A DNA stretch of 37,064 bases, taken from a bacterium (GTDB taxonomy: Bacteria > UBP15 > UBA6099). The notes under the pieces are model-generated. The model searched no databases. It saw only the letters and a list, made by a program, of their open reading frames with translations, and was not told the DNA's origin. Shown here one piece after another: positions 15,518-23,350 of this stretch. The DNA lies in assembly GCA_022709505.1 (NCBI GenBank), contig JAKLIR010000001.1, forward strand, positions 1-37,064, in the 5' to 3' direction. The position numbers were made by a program, and so were the translations under genes. How positions within the stretch are numbered: position 1 is the stretch's first letter; every line of letters begins with the position of its first letter.

Positions 15518-15744
15518 CTTTGCGACGAGACGGACATTCCTAAAGGTAATTTACCGAATTTCCCTGTTCGAGCAAAATAATGGCAGATGAAATGAACCTG
15601 CCATTCCTGAATATCGCAACTTTCCAATTCATATCGATGATAGATGAGTATTATGCTATACAGGGTCTTCACTCAAATGAAGATTGTCGCGCTTCATGAT
15701 TGTATTGAGTTTGAGGGAGCTCATCAGGATACTGTATAATATCG

Positions 15745-17448
15745 TTGGAGAAAAGAGTTAAAACGGCTGAGGAGCAAAGATTGACGGCAATGAATTTCGA
15801 GAAGATCCGGATTTCCCTCATAGCCGTTTTCTTTCTGGTGGCGATATTTCCACTTTCACTTCTTTCAAGAAAAATAGTCTTGCAAGGTGAGTATCTGATA
15901 AAGGAGAAGGCCTCTGCTCATTTGATAGATCTTGCGAAGGGAAATGTAAATGCCCTTGAAAGATTCATGAATGAGAGAATAAACGACATACAGGTCATGT
16001 CGAAGATGGTGTCCGCGCGTGGAAGCGACCGAGGATTCGTAATAAAGCAGTTGGAAAACATGAGGAAGCAGTATCGAATATATCCGGGTATCGTGCTATC
16101 TGACAGTGAAGGCCGTCCCCTGATAGGCACGAAAGGGTTGACGTCCGAAAGCATCTTGAGAGTTGAACGGTTTATCAAAAGAGGAGGCATCGTTTCAAGC
16201 GGCGTCGGCGACGTGGAAATGTTAAAGGTATCGGATGGAACAATCCCGGCCGTTATTATCTGTTCACGTCTCAAGGGGGCTGGCGGCGGTTACGATTATT
16301 TATGCGGGATCGTGGATTTCAGATATGTGAACAAAATACTTAAGGAGAGCGAAATCGGCGGTACGGGTGAAGTGTACATAGTTAACAAGGTCGGGTATTT
16401 TTTAACGGCGTCGCGCTTTGGAGCGAGGATCCTGAAAGACAAATATTCGCTTTTCTTAGATGAAAGAGAGCCGGCGCCGGCGTCGGAAGTGACTGATTAC
16501 AGAGGGCATAAAGTTCTTCACACGCAAAGAAAGGTTGGAGATTATCCTTGGTATGTAATTGCGGAACAGGACAAGAGCGAGACGCTTGCGCAGATCGTAA
16601 GATTACGGAAAGAGACCTTGTTTTATGTTTTTCTGATAACGGTAGTTGTATTTGCGATGTCATACATTGTATCGATGTTGATTGTAAATACCTTGAAGTC
16701 AAAATACAGATATGAGAAGGAGCTTGAATTTCAGGTTATTCAGAAAGACAAGCTGGCGGCTCTGGGATTACTTTCCGCGGGGCTTGCACACGAACTGAAC
16801 ACGCCTCTTGCGAACGCTTTGCTTTATGTGCAGATCGCGCGTGAAGAGTTAAAAGAAAACGAGCATGAGTCTTTGGATGACAGGCTGTTGACGATAGAAG
16901 ACGAAGTGAAACATGGCGGTGAAGTGGTGAAAAACCTTCTGGGGTTTTCCCACAGTGCTCAAGATGGTAAAAAGAGTGCGAATGTCAACGACGTCATATC
17001 GAAGTTATTGTCGATAGCAGGCCCGCATTGCGAATCCAAAGGTTTGTTGATGCACGTGGACTGCGAGGAAGGCATTCCGAATGTGGCGGCCGAAAAGAGC
17101 ACGTTGCAGGAAATAATCACGAACATAGTGGTCAACGCGATAGACACCATGCAGTGCGGCGGAGACATAAGGATATCGACAAGATATATTCCGTCGATAG
17201 GGAAGATAAGGATTGATGTGTCCGATACAGGGCCCGGAATACCCAAGGATGCAATTAGCAGGATATTCGACCCGTTTTACACAACAAAGAAACCCGGAGA
17301 AGGGACGGGACTCGGATTGTTCATGTGCTATCAGATGGTGCGTAAACTCGGTGGAGATATAAAGGTGGTAAGCAAAAGCGAAGGAACGGAAAAGACGGGA
17401 ACGACTTTCACCGTTGAATTGCCCGCCGAAACGGAGCGAAGCTTGTAA
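15745..17448 (+). CDS. sensor histidine kinase with a Cache-like periplasmic domain
   Basis: The protein has two TM helices flanking an extracytoplasmic region of about 250 aa. That region ends in YPWYVIAEQDKSE, which is Cache-like. The H-box is LAHELNTPL, the N-box is NIVVNAIDTM, G1 is DTGPGI and G2 is GTGLGL. The ORF-track start at 15745 is TTG. The in-frame ATG at 15790 (MNFEKIRISL...) is the more likely start. Confidence 0.9.
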   Translation: MEKRVKTAEEQRLTAMNFEKIRISLIAVFFLVAIFPLSLLSRKIVLQGEYLIKEKASAHLIDLAKGNVNALERFMNERINDIQVMSKMVSARGSDRGFVIKQLENMRKQYRIYPGIVLSDSEGRPLIGTKGLTSESILRVERFIKRGGIVSSGVGDVEMLKVSDGTIPAVIICSRLKGAGGGYDYLCGIVDFRYVNKILKESEIGGTGEVYIVNKVGYFLTASRFGARILKDKYSLFLDEREPAPASEVTDYRGHKVLHTQRKVGDYPWYVIAEQDKSETLAQIVRLRKETLFYVFLITVVVFAMSYIVSMLIVNTLKSKYRYEKELEFQVIQKDKLAALGLLSAGLAHELNTPLANALLYVQIAREELKENEHESLDDRLLTIEDEVKHGGEVVKNLLGFSHSAQDGKKSANVNDVISKLLSIAGPHCESKGLLMHVDCEEGIPNVAAEKSTLQEIITNIVVNAIDTMQCGGDIRISTRYIPSIGKIRIDVSDTGPGIPKDAISRIFDPFYTTKKPGEGTGLGLFMCYQMVRKLGGDIKVVSKSEGTEKTGTTFTVELPAETERSL

Positions 17449-17460
17449 AAAGGTGACTCG

Positions 17461-18834
17461 ATGAACGGATATAAAATATTGGTTGTTGAAGACGACAAGA
17501 AAATGCGGGATGGTCTTTTCTATGTCATGACGAAGGAAGGATACGAGGTGGATGCGGTCGATTCCGGCGAGGCGGCCTTGGGACGAATAAAAAATCATGC
17601 TTACGACCTCGTCATCTCGGACATGAAACTTCCCGGTATCGACGGCATGGAAGTTCTCAAAGCGGTGAAGAATTATGACAAAGACATAAGCATAATAATA
17701 ATCACTGCGTACGGCTCCGTTTCCGCGGCCGTCTCATCCATGAAAGAAGGCGCCGATGATTATGTCTTGAAGCCGTTTGATATGGAAGAGTTGAAATTCG
17801 TAGTGAGGAAAGTTTTTGAGAAAAGGGAGTTGGTCACGAAAAATCTACTGTTGCAAAGCCAACTGGAAAAGAAATACAAGTTTGACAACATAATAGGATC
17901 AAGTGAGAGCATAGTTAAAGTATTCAAATTGATAAATCAGATTAACAACTCAAAGACGACGGTTTTAATTCAAGGAGAAACCGGAACGGGAAAGGAACTC
18001 GTTGCAAAAGCCATACACTTCAACAGCATACGGGCGTCAAAACCTTTCTTGCCGGTGAATTGCGCGGCGCTGAATGAAAACCTGCTTGCGAGCGAATTAT
18101 TCGGCCATGTGAAGGGGGCTTTTACAGGAGCGGTGAAGGACAAAAGGGGCATATTCGAGGTGGCGGAAGGAGGAACTGTTTTCCTCGATGAAATCGGCGA
18201 CATAGATACAGGGATGCAACAGGTCCTCCTGAGAGTCCTCGAGGATGGCGAGATACAACCCGTGGGCTCGACGGAAAGAAGAAAGACTTCAGTCCGGATA
18301 ATCGCTGCTACCAACAAAGACCTCGAACAAATGATAAAGGAAGAGCGTTTTCGGGAAGACCTCTATTTCAGACTAAATGTTATTACGATAAAGATGCCGT
18401 CTCTCAGAGAGCGAAAAGAGGATATCGGAATACTGGCGCGGCATTTTCTAAAGATCTATTCGAATGAGAACAATAAAAACATAACATCGATTTCTCCGGA
18501 AGTTTTGTATCTGTTGGAAGAATACATCTGGCCGGGGAACGTGCGAGAACTTGAAAATGTCATAGAGCGGGCAACATTACTTGAGACGACTAACGAGATA
18601 ACGCCTGAAAGCCTTCCACCGTCAATTATGGATTTTTTTCAGCCTAAAGGAGGCGCGGCCTGCGGTTCGGATGATGTTGTGACCTTGGAACAAGTGGGAC
18701 GCTGTCACATTTTGGATATATTGAAGGCGTCAGGCGGAAACAAGGCCAAGGCGGCGGAGATGCTCGGGATAAACCGGACTACCCTTTGGCGTATGATGAA
18801 ACGGCTTAATATTGCGATAGATGATCAAGTGTAA
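17461..18834 (+). CDS. sigma-54-dependent response regulator (NtrC family: REC-AAA+-Fis HTH)
   Basis: The REC domain has its acceptor Asp in DLVISDMKLPG. Walker A is GETGTGKE. An intact GAFTGA loop is present (VKGAFTGA). Walker B is VFLDEIG. The arginine-finger region is RFREDLYFRL. The C-terminal HTH is AAEMLGINRTTLWRMMKRL. Confidence 0.93.
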   Translation: MNGYKILVVEDDKKMRDGLFYVMTKEGYEVDAVDSGEAALGRIKNHAYDLVISDMKLPGIDGMEVLKAVKNYDKDISIIIITAYGSVSAAVSSMKEGADDYVLKPFDMEELKFVVRKVFEKRELVTKNLLLQSQLEKKYKFDNIIGSSESIVKVFKLINQINNSKTTVLIQGETGTGKELVAKAIHFNSIRASKPFLPVNCAALNENLLASELFGHVKGAFTGAVKDKRGIFEVAEGGTVFLDEIGDIDTGMQQVLLRVLEDGEIQPVGSTERRKTSVRIIAATNKDLEQMIKEERFREDLYFRLNVITIKMPSLRERKEDIGILARHFLKIYSNENNKNITSISPEVLYLLEEYIWPGNVRELENVIERATLLETTNEITPESLPPSIMDFFQPKGGAACGSDDVVTLEQVGRCHILDILKASGGNKAKAAEMLGINRTTLWRMMKRLNIAIDDQV

Positions 18835-18850
18835 ATATCACCTCAAATTT

Positions 18851-18886
18851 GTTGCATAATGCAACTCGCGTGTTGCATTATGCAAC
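18851..18886. promoter_or_regulatory. two tandem 15-bp palindromes, a likely enhancer (UAS) for the adjacent sigma-54 activator
   Basis: GTTGCATAATGCAAC lies at 18851-18865 and GTTGCATTATGCAAC at 18872-18886. Their centres are 21 bp apart, two helical turns. They lie about 80-110 bp upstream of the -24/-12 promoter at 18960. As RNA the two copies could also pair with each other and act as a terminator for the upstream operon. Confidence 0.65.
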
Positions 18887-18959
18887 TTCAACTCGCATGC
18901 GTCTTTTGTTGAACGCATGAAAACCCTCATAACAGAACGTTATTTAAAACCCCGGAATC

Positions 18960-18974
18960 TGGCACGGAATTTGC
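18960..18974 (+). promoter_or_regulatory. sigma-54 promoter (-24/-12)
   Basis: TGGCAC-GGAAT-TTGC matches the TGGCAC-N5-TTGC consensus exactly. It sits downstream of the palindromes and about 95 nt upstream of the ATG at 19070, which has a strong ribosome-binding site. Confidence 0.8.
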
Positions 18975-19069
18975 CTCTTATGTTCGGTGCCGTGTCGAGT
19001 CGCAAAACTCATTCGACACAGATTCGCGCGACTGGTCTATTCAGCGCAAATAACAAAGGGAGGGTTCTT

Positions 19070-19519
19070 ATGAAGAAATATGTGATAGACGATCTTGATA
19101 ATTGGGACACAGTCCTTAATACGCTCGAAGAGCTAAAAAACAAAAAACTTTTGGACAGCCATCAGGATGAACTTATACGGCTCATAAGATACAACGACAA
19201 TTGGCGGTTGAGGGAGGCCGCGTTGCAAGCCGCGTGTCATGTGAGGAAACCGACGCGGGACTTGATCGACGAAGTAATGAATATCGTCGTTAGAGAGGAC
19301 GTCGGTATCGATGCGAGGATTTTCGCCGTCGAAGCCGCGGAAAGCATGATCGAGAATGCTTTTAGCCTGAAGAAACCCGAGAAAAGGGACATTCAGGCTA
19401 TAGCCGCGCAAACGGTGCAGCGCCTCAGATACCTCCGGTCTTGCCCGCAAGTTCCGATATTTACATCGGCGCTTAATAAGGCGCTTGGGAGAATTAATGA
19501 TTTATTGAAAACCGCCTGA
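19070..19519 (+). CDS. small HEAT-repeat-like protein (149 aa) of unknown function
   Basis: I trimmed the start relative to the ORF track (18917). The ATG at 19070 is preceded by AAAGGGAGGG and lies downstream of the sigma-54 promoter. NDNWRLREAALQAACHV resembles a HEAT/PBS-lyase repeat core (VR..A...L). Confidence 0.6.
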   Translation: MKKYVIDDLDNWDTVLNTLEELKNKKLLDSHQDELIRLIRYNDNWRLREAALQAACHVRKPTRDLIDEVMNIVVREDVGIDARIFAVEAAESMIENAFSLKKPEKRDIQAIAAQTVQRLRYLRSCPQVPIFTSALNKALGRINDLLKTA

Positions 19520-19559
19520 CACGATGACAGCGCTGTAATATCCCGAAAGGAGAAAGACA

Positions 19560-20720
19560 ATGATAATCGGTGTTCCAAAAGAGATCATGCCTCAGGAAAA
19601 CAGAATTGCGGTGCTTCCCGAAAATATCGCCAAGTATAAGGCCATGGGATTCAACGTGGTGGTTGAAACCAATGCCGGCGCCGGGGTCTATCAATTTGAC
19701 GAGGATTATGAAAAAGCGGGCGCTAAGATCGCGGAGGACGCTCGCGCCGTCTATGAAACAGCAGACATTATTCTGAAAGTGAAGGAGCCTATGCTCGATG
19801 ATAAAACCGGCGCCCATGAAATATACATGTTACGGAACAAGCAGTTCTTAGTGACGTTCCTGCATCCGGCGGCACCGTCGAACCACGGCATGATAAGGAA
19901 ACTAAGGGATAAAAATATAACCGCGTTCACCATGGACGGCATTCCGAGAATTTCGCGCGCGCAGAGGATGGACGCCCTAACCTCGATGAGCACTATAACC
20001 GGTTATAAAGCGGTGCTCATAGCCGCGAACCAGTTTTCAAGATTCATTCCGATGATAGGCGCTTCGATAGGGATGACGAAGCCCGCGAATATCCTTGTGA
20101 TCGGAACCGGCGTGGTGGGCTTGCAGGGCATAGCGACCGCAAAGAGAATGGGCGGTGCGGTGAAGGCGATCGACATAAGACCGGCCGCGAGGAAAGAGGC
20201 TGAATCGCTCGGCGTCAAGACGGTGGGGTTCGACATGCCTCCCGAAGTCGCCATGGGAGAAGGCGGATATGCAAAGGCTCTGTCATCCGAATGGCTCGAT
20301 AAGGAGCATGAGGCGATAAGACAGACCGTTGTGGAATCGGACATTGTGATTCTCAGCGCGCTCGTACCCGGCGAGGTGGCCCCCATACTGGTGACGGAAG
20401 ACATGGTTGAAAAAATGAAACCGGGGTCGGTCATTGTGGATGTCTCCATCGACCAAGGAGGCAACTGCGCCTTGACCGCGCCGGGAAGCATGACGACAGT
20501 ACACAACATCCACATCTGCGGAATCAAGAACATCCCGGGTTCAGTCCCCGTCCATTCCTCATGGATGTATGCGAACAATATGTTTTATTTCATCGAAAAT
20601 CTCTTCAAAGGCGGCCTTGGTGCATTTGACACGAGCGATGAGATTGTCTCTGGCACTCTTGTGACTCATGAGGGAAAAATATATCATCGCGGCGCTTTGA
20701 AAGCGATGGGAGTATCATAA
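19560..20720 (+). CDS. pntAA: NAD(P) transhydrogenase subunit alpha part 1 (dI, NAD(H)-binding domain)
   Basis: 386 aa. It begins MIIGVPKEIMPQENRIAVLPE, the AlaDH/PNT N-terminal block. The Rossmann motif is VIGTGVVGLQGIATAKRMGA. An AGGAG ribosome-binding site is present. Confidence 0.9.
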   Translation: MIIGVPKEIMPQENRIAVLPENIAKYKAMGFNVVVETNAGAGVYQFDEDYEKAGAKIAEDARAVYETADIILKVKEPMLDDKTGAHEIYMLRNKQFLVTFLHPAAPSNHGMIRKLRDKNITAFTMDGIPRISRAQRMDALTSMSTITGYKAVLIAANQFSRFIPMIGASIGMTKPANILVIGTGVVGLQGIATAKRMGGAVKAIDIRPAARKEAESLGVKTVGFDMPPEVAMGEGGYAKALSSEWLDKEHEAIRQTVVESDIVILSALVPGEVAPILVTEDMVEKMKPGSVIVDVSIDQGGNCALTAPGSMTTVHNIHICGIKNIPGSVPVHSSWMYANNMFYFIENLFKGGLGAFDTSDEIVSGTLVTHEGKIYHRGALKAMGVS

Positions 20721-20882
20721 CACGATTTTCACCCGGAGTAACTGAAGGTCCGGAGTGAGTGCTGTTCCATAGTCTTGTTACGGTTCCAATTCGTCTGAAT
20801 TCGAATCTCGGCCGCGCCGCCGAGCAGAACTGTGGTTTCGCATTGATGTAAGCAAGTTATTGAAAAGAAGGAGCGTTGAAGC

Positions 20883-21164
20883 ATGGCGAACATTCTTTTA
20901 CTCATAGGAGTGATGCTGTTTTCGTTTATCATTGGGTATATATTGATATCCCGCGTGCCGCAATTACTGCATACACCTCTTATGTCCATGACCAATGCAA
21001 TATCCGCAGTCACTATTCTCGGAGTGCTCATATTGTTCTCGAAAGACATTGAAGGTATCGAGAAATTACTCGCATGCGTCGCGCTCGCGACCGCCTCGTT
21101 CAACATAATCGGGGGGTTCGCGATAACGGACAGAATGCTGACTTATTTCAAAAAAAGTAAATGA
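20883..21164 (+). CDS. pntAB: NAD(P) transhydrogenase subunit alpha part 2 (membrane helices)
   Basis: 93 aa with three hydrophobic helices. It contains the characteristic HTPLMSMTNAISAVTILG block. An AAGGAG ribosome-binding site lies 11 nt upstream. Confidence 0.85.
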   Translation: MANILLLIGVMLFSFIIGYILISRVPQLLHTPLMSMTNAISAVTILGVLILFSKDIEGIEKLLACVALATASFNIIGGFAITDRMLTYFKKSK

Positions 21165-21176
21165 GGCAGTTTTGAC

Positions 21177-23168
21177 ATGGGACTGAACATTATACTTAAC
21201 AACTCGCTGATTGATTTTCTGATCATCTTCATTCTGATTTACGGTATATCGCGATTCCGCAATCCACCCGGCGCGAAGGTCGGCAACCGGACCGCCGCAT
21301 TTGCGCTGTTCAGCGCGGTCTTGCTCGTTATCGCAAGGCATGGAATACATGATCCGGTTGCCGTTGTCATTACACTCCTAATAGGTTCCGCGGCAGGATT
21401 GTATCTGGCGAAAACAGTGAACATGATACAAATACCGGCGATGGTCGCGTTCCAGCACGGAGCGGGCGGGGTGGCTGCTTTTCTGGTGTCTTTCGTGGAA
21501 CTGACATCCGTTGGCAAGACCCACGCTGCGATGAATGAGATTTCCGGGATACTCGGTCTTGTGATCGGAGCGGCCACTTTCAGCGGGAGTATGATCGCGA
21601 GCGGAAAACTCTCCAACAAGCTGAAACAGACACCGCAAAATATCCGCTTCCACTCTCATATCGCCTTAGCCGTCTTGATATCGATAATAGCGCTCGGCGC
21701 AATGTCGTTCCATCTGCCGCAGCAGCAGGATAAGATGATCTTCGTCTCCATGATAGTTCTTTCCGCCGCGTTCGGTGTGATCGTCTCGATCCGCATAGGC
21801 GGCGCCGACATGCCCGTACTGATATCATTTTTGAACGCCTCGGCCGGCCTTGCGGCGGCATTCTGCGGCATGATTATCGAAAACAAGCTTCTCATAGCGT
21901 GCGGGGCTACCGTGACAGCGTCCGGGTCCATCCTTACTCACGTGATGTGTAAAGCCATGAACCGCAAACTGATATGGATATTTATCCCGAGGAAAACTGT
22001 CACTGCGAAAAAAGCCCCGGGAGCTAAAAATGTCAGCACAGCCGTAACAGCGCCGCGGGCTGTTAAAGATGAGAGCAAAAGTCCTTCGGACCCAATCGCA
22101 ACGGCGGCTCGGTTGGCGCTCGAGGCGGATAATGTGATCATCATACCGGGATACGGAATGGCGATCGCTCAGGCTCAGAGTGAAGTCGCGGCATTTGCGA
22201 AGCTCATGTCCGAAATGAAAAAGAAAGTCAGGTTTGCGATTCATCCCGTGGCGGGAAGGATGCCGGGACACATGAATGTGCTGCTTGCGGAAGCGGAAGT
22301 AGAATATGAGATGTTGTTCGAAATGGACGATATTAATCAGGATTTCAAGCACACCGATCTGGTTTTGATTGTTGGCGCGTGCGACGTAGTCAATCCCTCA
22401 GCGATCAGCGTCGAGGGCACCCCTATCTCCGGCATGCCCATTCTTCGCGCGAATGACTCGAAAAATGTAATATGCTGCAACTTCGACACTAACCCCGGAT
22501 ACTCCGGCGTTCGGAACCTTCTCTATGAAATGGATAAAACGATTTTGCTTCTCGGTGATGCGAAGCAAACGGTCGGACGTTTGATAGAACGAGTGCGATC
22601 TGGCGTGGCGGAGACGATTCCCGAGGATGAAAAGAAACCAACATCGAACTATGAAAAAGCGGCGCAAACGCTGACGTCGGCAAAAAGCGTGATAATCGTT
22701 CCGGGGTACGGCATGGCGATCGCTCAGGCTCAGTTTAAGGTCGCCGAAATGGCGCGATTACTCGAAAAAAACAATACCGTTGTGAATTTCGCGGTACACC
22801 CGGTCGCGGGGAGGATGCCGGGCCACATGCATGTTCTTCTCGCGGAAGCTGAAGTGGACTATGAAAAGCTGAAAGAGATGGATGTGATCAACCCGATGTT
22901 TAAAGATGCGGATGTCGTTCTTGTCGTCGGGGCATGTGATGTGATCAATCCATCCGCCATCAGAATTGAAAACACGCCGATTTCGGGCATGCCGGTATTG
23001 TCTGTTATCGATGCGAAAAACATATTAATTTGCAACTATGACGAGAAGCCGGGATATTCCGGCGTGGACAATCCGCTGTACAGGGAACGGAAAACCACGT
23101 GTCTTTTCGGAGACGCCCGGGAGACAATCACGAAATTGATATCACTTTGCTCTGAAACTACGGCTTGA
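21177..23168 (+). CDS. pntB: NAD(P) transhydrogenase subunit beta with two tandem dIII (NADP(H)-binding) domains
   Basis: 663 aa. The N-terminal ~265 aa are multi-TM. Two consecutive dIII copies follow, each containing PGYGMAIAQAQ, HPVAGRMPGHM.VLLAEAEV, GACDV.NPSA, PISGMP and PGYSGV. Copy 1 starts near V320 (nt 22134) and copy 2 near V505 (nt 22689). Confidence 0.9.
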   Translation: MGLNIILNNSLIDFLIIFILIYGISRFRNPPGAKVGNRTAAFALFSAVLLVIARHGIHDPVAVVITLLIGSAAGLYLAKTVNMIQIPAMVAFQHGAGGVAAFLVSFVELTSVGKTHAAMNEISGILGLVIGAATFSGSMIASGKLSNKLKQTPQNIRFHSHIALAVLISIIALGAMSFHLPQQQDKMIFVSMIVLSAAFGVIVSIRIGGADMPVLISFLNASAGLAAAFCGMIIENKLLIACGATVTASGSILTHVMCKAMNRKLIWIFIPRKTVTAKKAPGAKNVSTAVTAPRAVKDESKSPSDPIATAARLALEADNVIIIPGYGMAIAQAQSEVAAFAKLMSEMKKKVRFAIHPVAGRMPGHMNVLLAEAEVEYEMLFEMDDINQDFKHTDLVLIVGACDVVNPSAISVEGTPISGMPILRANDSKNVICCNFDTNPGYSGVRNLLYEMDKTILLLGDAKQTVGRLIERVRSGVAETIPEDEKKPTSNYEKAAQTLTSAKSVIIVPGYGMAIAQAQFKVAEMARLLEKNNTVVNFAVHPVAGRMPGHMHVLLAEAEVDYEKLKEMDVINPMFKDADVVLVVGACDVINPSAIRIENTPISGMPVLSVIDAKNILICNYDEKPGYSGVDNPLYRERKTTCLFGDARETITKLISLCSETTA

Positions 23169-23350
23169 TGCTACTGCCGATGCGTGATCCCGGGCGATAT
23201 GAAAGATTAAGGGGTGGGGTTGGATAAACCAATTGTTGATGCATGGAGAGTTGTTGTATGATGTAATGATCGGGCGATGAAAGCATCCTCGGCCGGGGAT
23301 GCGTCCGGGCATACGTAACTGTTCATGCTGACAGTGTGGTGGAAACCTAA

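Follow-up and report, generated by a model that had tools for sequence, protein, structure and literature searches.

A conserved sigma-54 cassette predicted to place a HEAT-like gene and the membrane transhydrogenase genes under a dedicated enhancer-binding protein

The six-gene cassette in this report lies on the + strand of a 37,064-nt stretch of DNA, referred to here as the window, which is the entire contig C1 (JAKLIR010000001.1) of a metagenome-assembled genome (MAG; GCA_022709505.1, GTDB lineage Bacteria; UBP15; UBA6099). The assembly comprises 3.71 Mb in 621 contigs and is ~81% complete. Between 15.7 and 23.2 kb, the order of elements is a sensor kinase gene, an activator gene, two palindromes, a predicted sigma-54 promoter, a gene for a small HEAT-like protein, and the transhydrogenase genes pntAA, pntAB, and pntB (Table 1). 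The assembly also encodes a complete rpoN, as a 479-aa open reading frame (ORF) on contig C373 with AID, CBD, and DBD domains, and about 10 enhancer-binding proteins.

An initial annotation of the window had proposed a sigma-54 circuit made up of a Cache-type sensor kinase, an NtrC-family activator with an intact GAFTGA loop, two perfect 15-bp palindromes at 18851-18886 with centers 21 bp apart, an exact TGGCAC-N5-TTGC promoter at 18960-18974, and a strong ribosome-binding site (RBS) and ATG at 19070, followed by the HEAT-like gene and pntAA-pntAB-pntB. All of these elements are present where the annotation placed them except the start of the kinase: the gene stands, and the proposed position, 15745, is the start of the maximal ORF. 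A TTG at 15781 or an ATG at 15790 is probably the true start, because a sigma-70-like match, TTGAGG-18-TATAAT, ends at 15740. This match is likely to be the constitutive promoter of the kinase-activator pair.

Table 1. Genes and predicted control elements of the cassette, with positions in the window
Feature	Position	Strand	Description
Sigma-70-like promoter TTGAGG-18-TATAAT	15711..15740	+	10/12 consensus match, best of the scanned region
Sensor histidine kinase	15781..17448	+	Transmembrane segment (TM) 1, periplasmic dCache, TM2, HisKA (H-box HELNTP), HATPase_c; from Pfam, translation, AlphaFold (AF2), and orthologues beside the cassette elsewhere
NtrC-family response-regulator enhancer-binding protein	17461..18834	+	Receiver, AAA+, AAA_lid, HTH_8; starts 12 nt past the kinase stop
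Distal enhancer site UAS1 (predicted)	18851..18865	.	GTTGCATAATGCAAC; center 103 bp upstream of the -24 GG
Proximal enhancer site UAS2 (predicted)	18872..18886	.	GTTGCATTATGCAAC; center 82 bp upstream of the -24 GG, 21 bp from UAS1
Sigma-54 promoter TGGCAC-GGAAT-TTGC (predicted)	18960..18974	+	TGGCACGGAATTTGC; -24 GG 18961-2, -12 GC 18973-4
HEAT-like gene, first of the operon	19070..19519	+	ATG 19070, RBS AAAGGGAGGG; 149-aa alpha-solenoid (ARM/HEAT-like), cytoplasmic
pntAA (transhydrogenase dI)	19560..20720	+	PF05222/PF01262; own RBS, 40 nt past the HEAT-like stop
pntAB (4-TM part of alpha subunit)	20883..21164	+	PF12769; after a 162-nt spacer
pntB (dII + two tandem dIII, 663 aa)	21177..23168	+	PF02233, 719.7 bits

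The HisKA and HATPase_c domains of the kinase are clear in Pfam, and the translation places a periplasmic domain of 250 residues, about 27-276 of the 552-aa kinase, between two TM segments. The dCache_1 profile (PF02743) matches the kinase with 38.7 bits (E = 1e-9), under the Pfam gathering cut-off of 45, and kinase orthologues in other loci are flagged for PF02743 in precomputed matches. An AlphaFold model of the periplasmic part, built on ten orthologues, has a predicted local distance difference test score (pLDDT) of 81. When this model was searched with Foldseek, it matched PctA/B/C, CtaA, Mlp24/37, and histidine-kinase sensor domains, with E values down to 2.5e-10 and TM scores of 0.65-0.73. 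The modeled domain appears to have a double PAS-like fold that follows a long N-terminal helix and is flanked by the two TM segments, as in a dCache domain. The assignment of a Cache-type sensor is thus retained, since the model superposes on solved dCache ligand-binding domains even though the Pfam score is below its cut-off. The fold matches are generic dCache domains and point to no particular ligand; the residues that are invariant in the family cluster in the membrane-proximal module.

The activator has all the domains and motifs of its class. The receiver (PF00072, E = 1.4e-30) includes the phospho-acceptor D54, and the Sigma54_activat domain (PF00158, 233.9 bits, E = 1e-69) contains Walker A (GETGTGKE, residues 172-179), GAFTGA (residues 219-224), and Walker B (FLDEIG, at residue 241). 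A helix-turn-helix domain, HTH_8 (PF02954, E = 3.2e-13), occupies residues 408-448. Orthologues from nine other cassettes are 57-77% identical and conserve Walker A, Walker B, and the HTH; D11, D12, D54, T82, and K104 are invariant across the 10 proteins, and the loop reads GAFTGA, GSFTGA, or GAYTGA. The activator scores below the NCBIfam equivalog cut-offs for AtoC (459.6 versus 714), NtrC (422.2 versus 558.6), and ZraR (399.3 versus 760); judged from its domains and these scores, it is a bacterial enhancer-binding protein of the response-regulator class outside any named equivalog.

The palindromes and the promoter lie in the 235-nt intergenic region between the activator and HEAT-like genes. 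The palindrome pair is not a random occurrence: none of 100 shuffles gave two matches, even with two mismatches allowed. A search for the palindrome elsewhere, proposed along with the annotation, returned only these two copies before the HEAT-like and pnt genes in the whole 3.71-Mb assembly, where the 11-bp core TGCAT-N-ATGCA is likewise found nowhere else. Within the TGGCAC-N5-TTGC element, which is the sole exact match in the window, the -24 GG and -12 GC are spaced by exactly 10 bp, and transcription is predicted to start near 18985-18987. The annotation had named a sigma-70 promoter as an alternative origin of the transcript; neither a sigma-70-like promoter nor a terminator-like hairpin was predicted on the + strand from the activator stop to pntAA. 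The 90-nt leader folds no better than shuffled sequences (z = -0.12), and no Rfam match was found across 18800-21300 at E <= 1. The circuit as a whole is compact, with one sensor, one activator, a 36-bp enhancer, and a promoter region of ~120 bp. An inverted repeat, CATGCGT-N10-ACGCATG (18896-18919), lies between enhancer and promoter; the nearest loci do not conserve it, and its candidacy for a third regulatory element was rejected.

The first gene beyond the promoter encodes a protein whose AF2 model (pLDDT 92) consists of seven helices. It belongs to no Pfam or NCBIfam family, its translation has no obvious N-terminal hydrophobic segment, and a structural search of the PDB gave designed or generic ARM/HEAT repeats rather than a specific relative. 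The three genes that follow encode dI, the 4-TM alpha part, and a beta subunit with dII and dIII, in the order of a three-polypeptide proton-translocating transhydrogenase. The window pntB is the only PntB gene, and this the only pnt locus, in the assembly, and transhydrogenase capacity would therefore be inducible rather than constitutive. The PntB proteins differ among cassettes in the NADP(H)-binding dIII domain, which occurs in tandem in the window (22074-23168) and in L002, L057, L061, L064, L065, L068, L097, and L100 (660-695 aa), and singly in L062, L063, L067, L072, and L073 as well as in same-family relatives.

Comparable cassettes were found in other genomes, and we refer to those with a sensor kinase and a response-regulator activator as class 1. 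This class comprises 14 independent loci from Desulfobacter, Desulfobacula, 'Desulfobacterium', and unclassified MAGs, gathered through homologues of the HEAT-like protein, a search with the activator that contributed two cassettes, and two chromosome-level 'Desulfobacterium' MAGs that contributed two more. The small first gene has few homologues, and those examined all share its context. The nearest relative of the activator in the species-genome collection (75% identity; L002, from the same GTDB family) lies in the same six-gene cassette. The arrangement described in the annotation is thus a conserved cassette, as opposed to a peculiarity of this genome.

All 14 class-1 loci have two 15-bp sites with the consensus G-w-TGCA-N3-TGCA-w-C and with centers 18-21 bp apart. 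Over the 28 sites, the G and C of the TGCA core are kept in 26-27 cases, the flanking A in 23, and the inner T in 22. Measured from the -24 GG, 11 loci have the proximal site at 82-88 bp and the distal site at 103-107 bp; for the remaining three, the values are 109-110 and 127-129 bp. The promoter, of the form TGGCAC/T-N5-TTGC, is conserved in position and sequence in 14 of 14, and the HEAT-like gene begins 46-182 nt beyond it. When the four nearest intergenic regions were aligned, 32 of 45 columns in the three elements were invariant, compared to 24 of 181 elsewhere (Fisher p = 7e-14, with the caveat that the aligner itself is anchored by the enhancer and promoter blocks). In L064, L065, L072, and L073, inserted genes separate the kinase-activator pair from its target by 3-5 kb, and the sites and promoter remain before the HEAT-like and pnt genes. 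L064 has, in addition, a second pair of sites, GATGCGTTCCGCATC and GTTGCATTGTGCGGC, with a promoter, TGGCATAGTTGATGC, directly behind the activator gene (L064:1584-2166) and before a gene with tandem Usp domains; to judge from these elements, this gene would be a second regulon member. A possible co-variation between the HTH and its sites was dismissed as anecdotal: L057 has GTTTCA-N3-TGAAAC sites together with an N-to-S change before the recognition helix, and L068, with a similar activator (83% identical to that of the window), keeps GTTGCA.

The pnt genes directly follow the HEAT-like gene in 12 of the 14 class-1 loci. In the Desulfobacter postgatei-type loci (L060:7686-9608, L055:7793-8011), the gene after the HEAT-like gene is not pntAA; in L060 it encodes a fusion of an acetyl-CoA hydrolase/transferase with a GNAT domain. 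The identities of the six proteins to those of the window (kinase/activator/HEAT-like/PntAA/PntAB/PntB) covary; they are, for example, 63/83/53/79/85/74% in L068 and 40/57/36/67/62/55% in L061. Among the 13 species genomes of the window's GTDB phylum, the cassette is found in only two (G000 and G004). Four genomes of the same family have pntAA-AB-B with a TATAAT-type region upstream, and no kinase, activator, HEAT-like gene, or -24/-12 element. The window PntAA shares 65-68% identity with cassette-borne Desulfobacterota PntAA and slightly less, 61-62%, with the PntAA of these family relatives. By these comparisons, the cassette appears to behave as one evolutionary unit common to the window's phylum and the Desulfobacterota. 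A recent horizontal transfer, looked for in base composition, was not borne out, since the G+C content of the cassette (48.4%) matches that of the remaining contig (48-49.5%).

A further type of locus came to light when 201 species of the GTDB order containing the 'Desulfobacterium' MAG were searched with a profile built from HEAT-like proteins. The profile matched 20 of the 201 genomes, four of the two-component type described above and about fifteen of a commoner one-component type, so that, with both activator classes counted, the HEAT cassette is present in ~10% of the sampled species of this one Desulfobacterota order. In class 2 (L093-L100, from G112, G137, G218, G077, G087, G162, G242, and G191), the activator is a protein of 590-640 residues with an unassigned N-terminus followed by PAS, AAA+, and HTH_8 domains, encoded directly upstream of the HEAT-like gene. 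The enhancer also differs, consisting of CGCCC-N5-GGGCG overlapping GGGCG-N4-CGCCC at 11-21 nt past the activator stop, with a promoter, TGGCAT-N5-TTGC, ~170 nt beyond it. After the promoter there is usually an ORF of ~80 codons, then the HEAT-like gene, and in most loci pntAA-AB-B. The short conserved ORF, with the pattern M.LVKNKASGK.F.VLDD....L.ITPEGK.K.L...LF..., is seen in L093 (L093:6604-6852), L095, L096, L098, L099, and L100 and is absent from class 1. In L093, the HEAT-like gene is followed by a stand-alone 191-aa dIII-like protein (L093:7701-8276; PF02233 positions 287-401) and not by pnt; L096 and L098 have no pnt nearby, and L092 likewise has none directly after the HEAT-like gene. 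The presence of a sigma-54 promoter before the HEAT-like and pnt genes, with a different enhancer-binding protein and a different enhancer, provides independent support for the circuit. It seems that enhancer-dependent transcription of these genes was either retained or arrived at with sensing modules of two unrelated kinds.

We therefore consider it likely that the window encodes an enhancer-dependent switch, resembling DctB/DctD, that controls the HEAT-like gene and the proton-translocating transhydrogenase operon. The claim of the annotation that a sigma-54 circuit drives these genes is supported by the footprint across 14 loci, by sites that stay with the target, by sites that are unique in the genome, and by a complete rpoN. 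From what is established for NtrC/DctD-type systems, the switch would work as follows. The kinase and activator would be made from their own, probably sigma-70, promoter. A small molecule would bind the periplasmic dCache domain of the kinase and control autophosphorylation of the H-box histidine, from which, as the intact motifs suggest, phosphate would pass to D54 of the activator. This transfer would release or promote oligomerization of the activator on the two sites. Dimers bound at G-w-TGCA-N3-TGCA-w-C, an assignment suggested by comparative genomics, would lie ~107 and 128 bp ahead of the transcription start, where an AAA+ ring would form. Its ATP-driven GAFTGA loops would then remodel the closed complex of sigma-54 holoenzyme at TGGCAC-N5-TTGC, and a single mRNA would presumably carry the HEAT-like gene, pntAA, pntAB, and pntB. 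As the assembly has no other pnt locus, an external cue would thereby switch the capacity of the cell for NADH/NADPH exchange that either consumes or generates proton-motive force.

Several observations weigh against this reading. On the sensor side, a PDB search by sequence gave no close solved relative, and the top match of the sensor profile, the Bacillus KinD sensor, is weak (E = 0.003). The promoter pattern by itself is not significant, with three matches in the window at <=1 mismatch compared to 1.9 expected, and enrichment of the strict sigma-54 pattern across the genome had to be discarded as evidence, given four matches in the assembly and 2-6 in shuffles. Because the pattern is not rare, the credibility of the promoter depends on its position, context, and conservation, and in this last respect three orthologous promoters are without the C of the -12 GC (TTGT, TTGA). 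With up to one mismatch allowed, the window has no integration host factor (IHF)-like site in the stretch that separates enhancer from promoter; IHF-like matches in other loci are scattered, and the spacer in the window is simply A/T-rich. With no terminator between the activator gene and the operon, read-through could give expression that is independent of the signal. Within the operon, the pntAA-pntAB spacer (20721-20882) has 162 nt, compared to 17-41 nt in other cassettes, and contains a GC hairpin, CTCGGCCGC/GCCGCCGAG (20807-20824), with no T-run; a weak sigma-70-like match (20659-20687) sits inside the end of pntAA, just upstream of the spacer. As a result of these features, pntAB-pntB might be handled separately, or their expression modulated. 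The operon has no clear end, since all that follows pntB is a hairpin (23283-23302) lacking a T-run. Finally, an activator of Desulforapulum autotrophicum HRM2 (L066; CP001087: 642491-657846), 63% identical to that of the window, has neither TGCA-type sites nor HEAT-like and pnt genes within 7 kb, although its target may sit elsewhere, as in L064, L065, L072, and L073. The dCache kinase and activator of HRM2 are followed by genes for an extracytoplasmic function (ECF) sigma factor, an LTXXQ/Spy-like protein, and an OEP-MFP-MacB efflux set.

If the sigma-54 promoter drove only the HEAT-like gene, pnt would be transcribed mainly by read-through or from an internal promoter. The HEAT-like gene is indeed tied more to the enhancer-binding protein than to pnt, which is not directly behind it in L055, L060, or the class-2 loci L096, L098, and L092; the gaps between the HEAT-like gene and pntAA in Desulfobacter-type loci are strongly structured and 136-343 nt long; and the weak match at 20659-20687 could serve pnt separately. 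In the window, however, this gap is 40 nt long and has an RBS and nothing resembling a promoter or terminator, the start codon of pntAA overlaps the end of the HEAT-like gene in L057 and L062, and pnt directly follows in the twelve class-1 loci noted above. This alternative therefore strikes us as improbable, and we infer that the HEAT-like gene through pntB would be read as one transcript. The long gaps, seen at L061:7448-7776, L064:7448-7588, and L002:8040-8290, are rich in very stable hairpins (-122.9 kcal/mol over 329 nt in L061) and could be elements for processing or attenuation. Less plausible still is that the palindromes are the sites of another regulator, or an RNA hairpin or terminator of the activator gene, next to a fortuitous -24/-12 match. 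Each palindrome could form a hairpin of 6-7 bp, both are found 16-52 nt past the activator stop, and the promoter match, not being statistically rare, could have arisen by chance. Neither palindrome is followed by a T-run, though, and in the four loci with displaced regulator genes the sites keep with the target and not with the end of the activator gene, which speaks strongly against their being a terminator or belonging to an unrelated factor. The conserved distance between sites and promoter, the recurrence of sites and promoter ahead of the Usp gene in L064, and the conservation of HTH_8 in all aligned activator orthologues make this explanation very improbable.

The circuit might also be mainly a stress or envelope response for which pnt is one interchangeable cargo. 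Several facts are in keeping with this: the Usp gene as second target in L064, the acetyl-CoA hydrolase/transferase-GNAT gene after the HEAT-like gene in L060, the ECF sigma factor, LTXXQ protein, and MacAB-like efflux pump next to the HRM2 homologue, and AtoC and ZraR as nearest named families in NCBIfam, both below cut-off. Against it, pnt is the cargo in 12 of the 14 class-1 and in most class-2 loci, and in the window assembly the palindromic sites occur before the HEAT-like and pnt genes only. We regard this possibility as unlikely, while giving it somewhat more weight than transcription of the HEAT-like gene alone.

In every locus of both activator classes, the HEAT-like gene comes after the sigma-54 promoter, even where no pnt is behind it. 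It appears from the gene arrangements to be bound to the activator-promoter unit at least as tightly as to the transhydrogenase, because it is kept where pnt is replaced or absent. One may speculate that the invariant output of these sigma-54 circuits is the HEAT-like protein rather than pnt, as a dedicated partner of the activator AAA+ domain or of the transhydrogenase head domains, a proposal that we make tentatively and think rather doubtful. A precedent is the sigma-54 operon controlled by PspF, in which PspA, the product of the first gene, exerts feedback on the activator. The HEAT-like protein is similar in being a small, all-helical, cytoplasmic first product that is kept with the activator when the cargo changes, and it is different in being an ARM/HEAT solenoid with no relation to PspA in sequence or fold. 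By this analogy it could feed back on the activator AAA+ domain as PspA does on PspF, which is pure conjecture; alternatively, it could dock on the transhydrogenase head domains and set their direction or activity.

Returning to the DctB/DctD-like switch, its closest parallel is the C4-dicarboxylate two-component system of rhizobia, DctB/DctD-dctA, which has a kinase with a periplasmic double PDC/Cache domain and two enhancer sites ~100-150 bp upstream of a sigma-54 promoter. The systems share a membrane kinase with a periplasmic sensor, a receiver-AAA+-HTH activator, paired enhancers, and a target beside the regulator genes. They differ in the target, which is a transporter gene for dctA and a HEAT-led transhydrogenase operon here, and in the site, here G-w-TGCA-N3-TGCA-w-C. 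The NtrB/NtrC-glnAp2, AtoS/AtoC, and ZraS/ZraR systems of E. coli, which supply the best NCBIfam matches, are alike in activator architecture and mechanism and unlike in regulon; the scores are under their cut-offs, and NtrB is cytoplasmic, in contrast to the periplasmic dCache sensor of the cassette. The mechanism thus appears to be an ordinary enhancer-dependent two-component switch of the NtrC/DctD type.

The nearest published cases connect sigma-54 regulation with transhydrogenases in other ways. The transhydrogenase cluster azo1003-1005 of Azoarcus BH72 is among the clusters with NifA-affected expression (PMC3916325), and Bradyrhizobium DOA9 has a predicted RpoN promoter upstream of the soluble transhydrogenase gene sthA (PMC13207237). 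Unlike the present cassette, these cases concern broad regulons, on the basis of expression or a motif only, with no dedicated sensor-activator pair or adjacent enhancers. No published description of a dedicated enhancer-binding protein for pnt was found in the full-text literature, a search with subscription journals outside its coverage, and transhydrogenase is mentioned neither in the Desulfovibrio vulgaris sigma-54 regulome paper nor in a 2025 cross-phylum survey of sigma-54 regulons. Within the searched literature, then, the annotation was right to present the arrangement as undescribed. As read from these genomes, what is new is the target, a membrane transhydrogenase with a HEAT-like protein, in a pairing that is conserved across phyla and apparently served by two activator types.

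The genes around the cassette are methyltransferase genes in the window and vary elsewhere, with glutamate dehydrogenase in L064 and L067, GreA-like genes in L062 and L063, and single-domain receivers and a Kef-type exchanger in L057 and L068; these varying neighbors give no consistent hint of the signal. Contig C1 has 48.7% G+C, and the whole assembly has 52.9%. This gap does not indicate mis-binning, since the family relative G004 has the same cassette.

The membrane transhydrogenase is usually regarded as a housekeeping redox valve. In this bacterium, as in an appreciable minority of Desulfobacterota, the enzyme is instead predicted to be silent until a specific activator fires. The convergence of two unrelated sensor types on the HEAT-like and pnt genes suggests that there is a discrete condition under which these anaerobes need, or must avoid, exchange between NADH and NADPH coupled to the proton-motive force, and the identity of the dCache ligand would name that physiological condition. 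The HEAT-like first gene is an unstudied candidate for a partner of the regulator or the enzyme; should that partnership exist, it would add a new protein-level layer of control over NADH/NADPH exchange, gated by an external ligand in class 1 or by an internal PAS signal in class 2.

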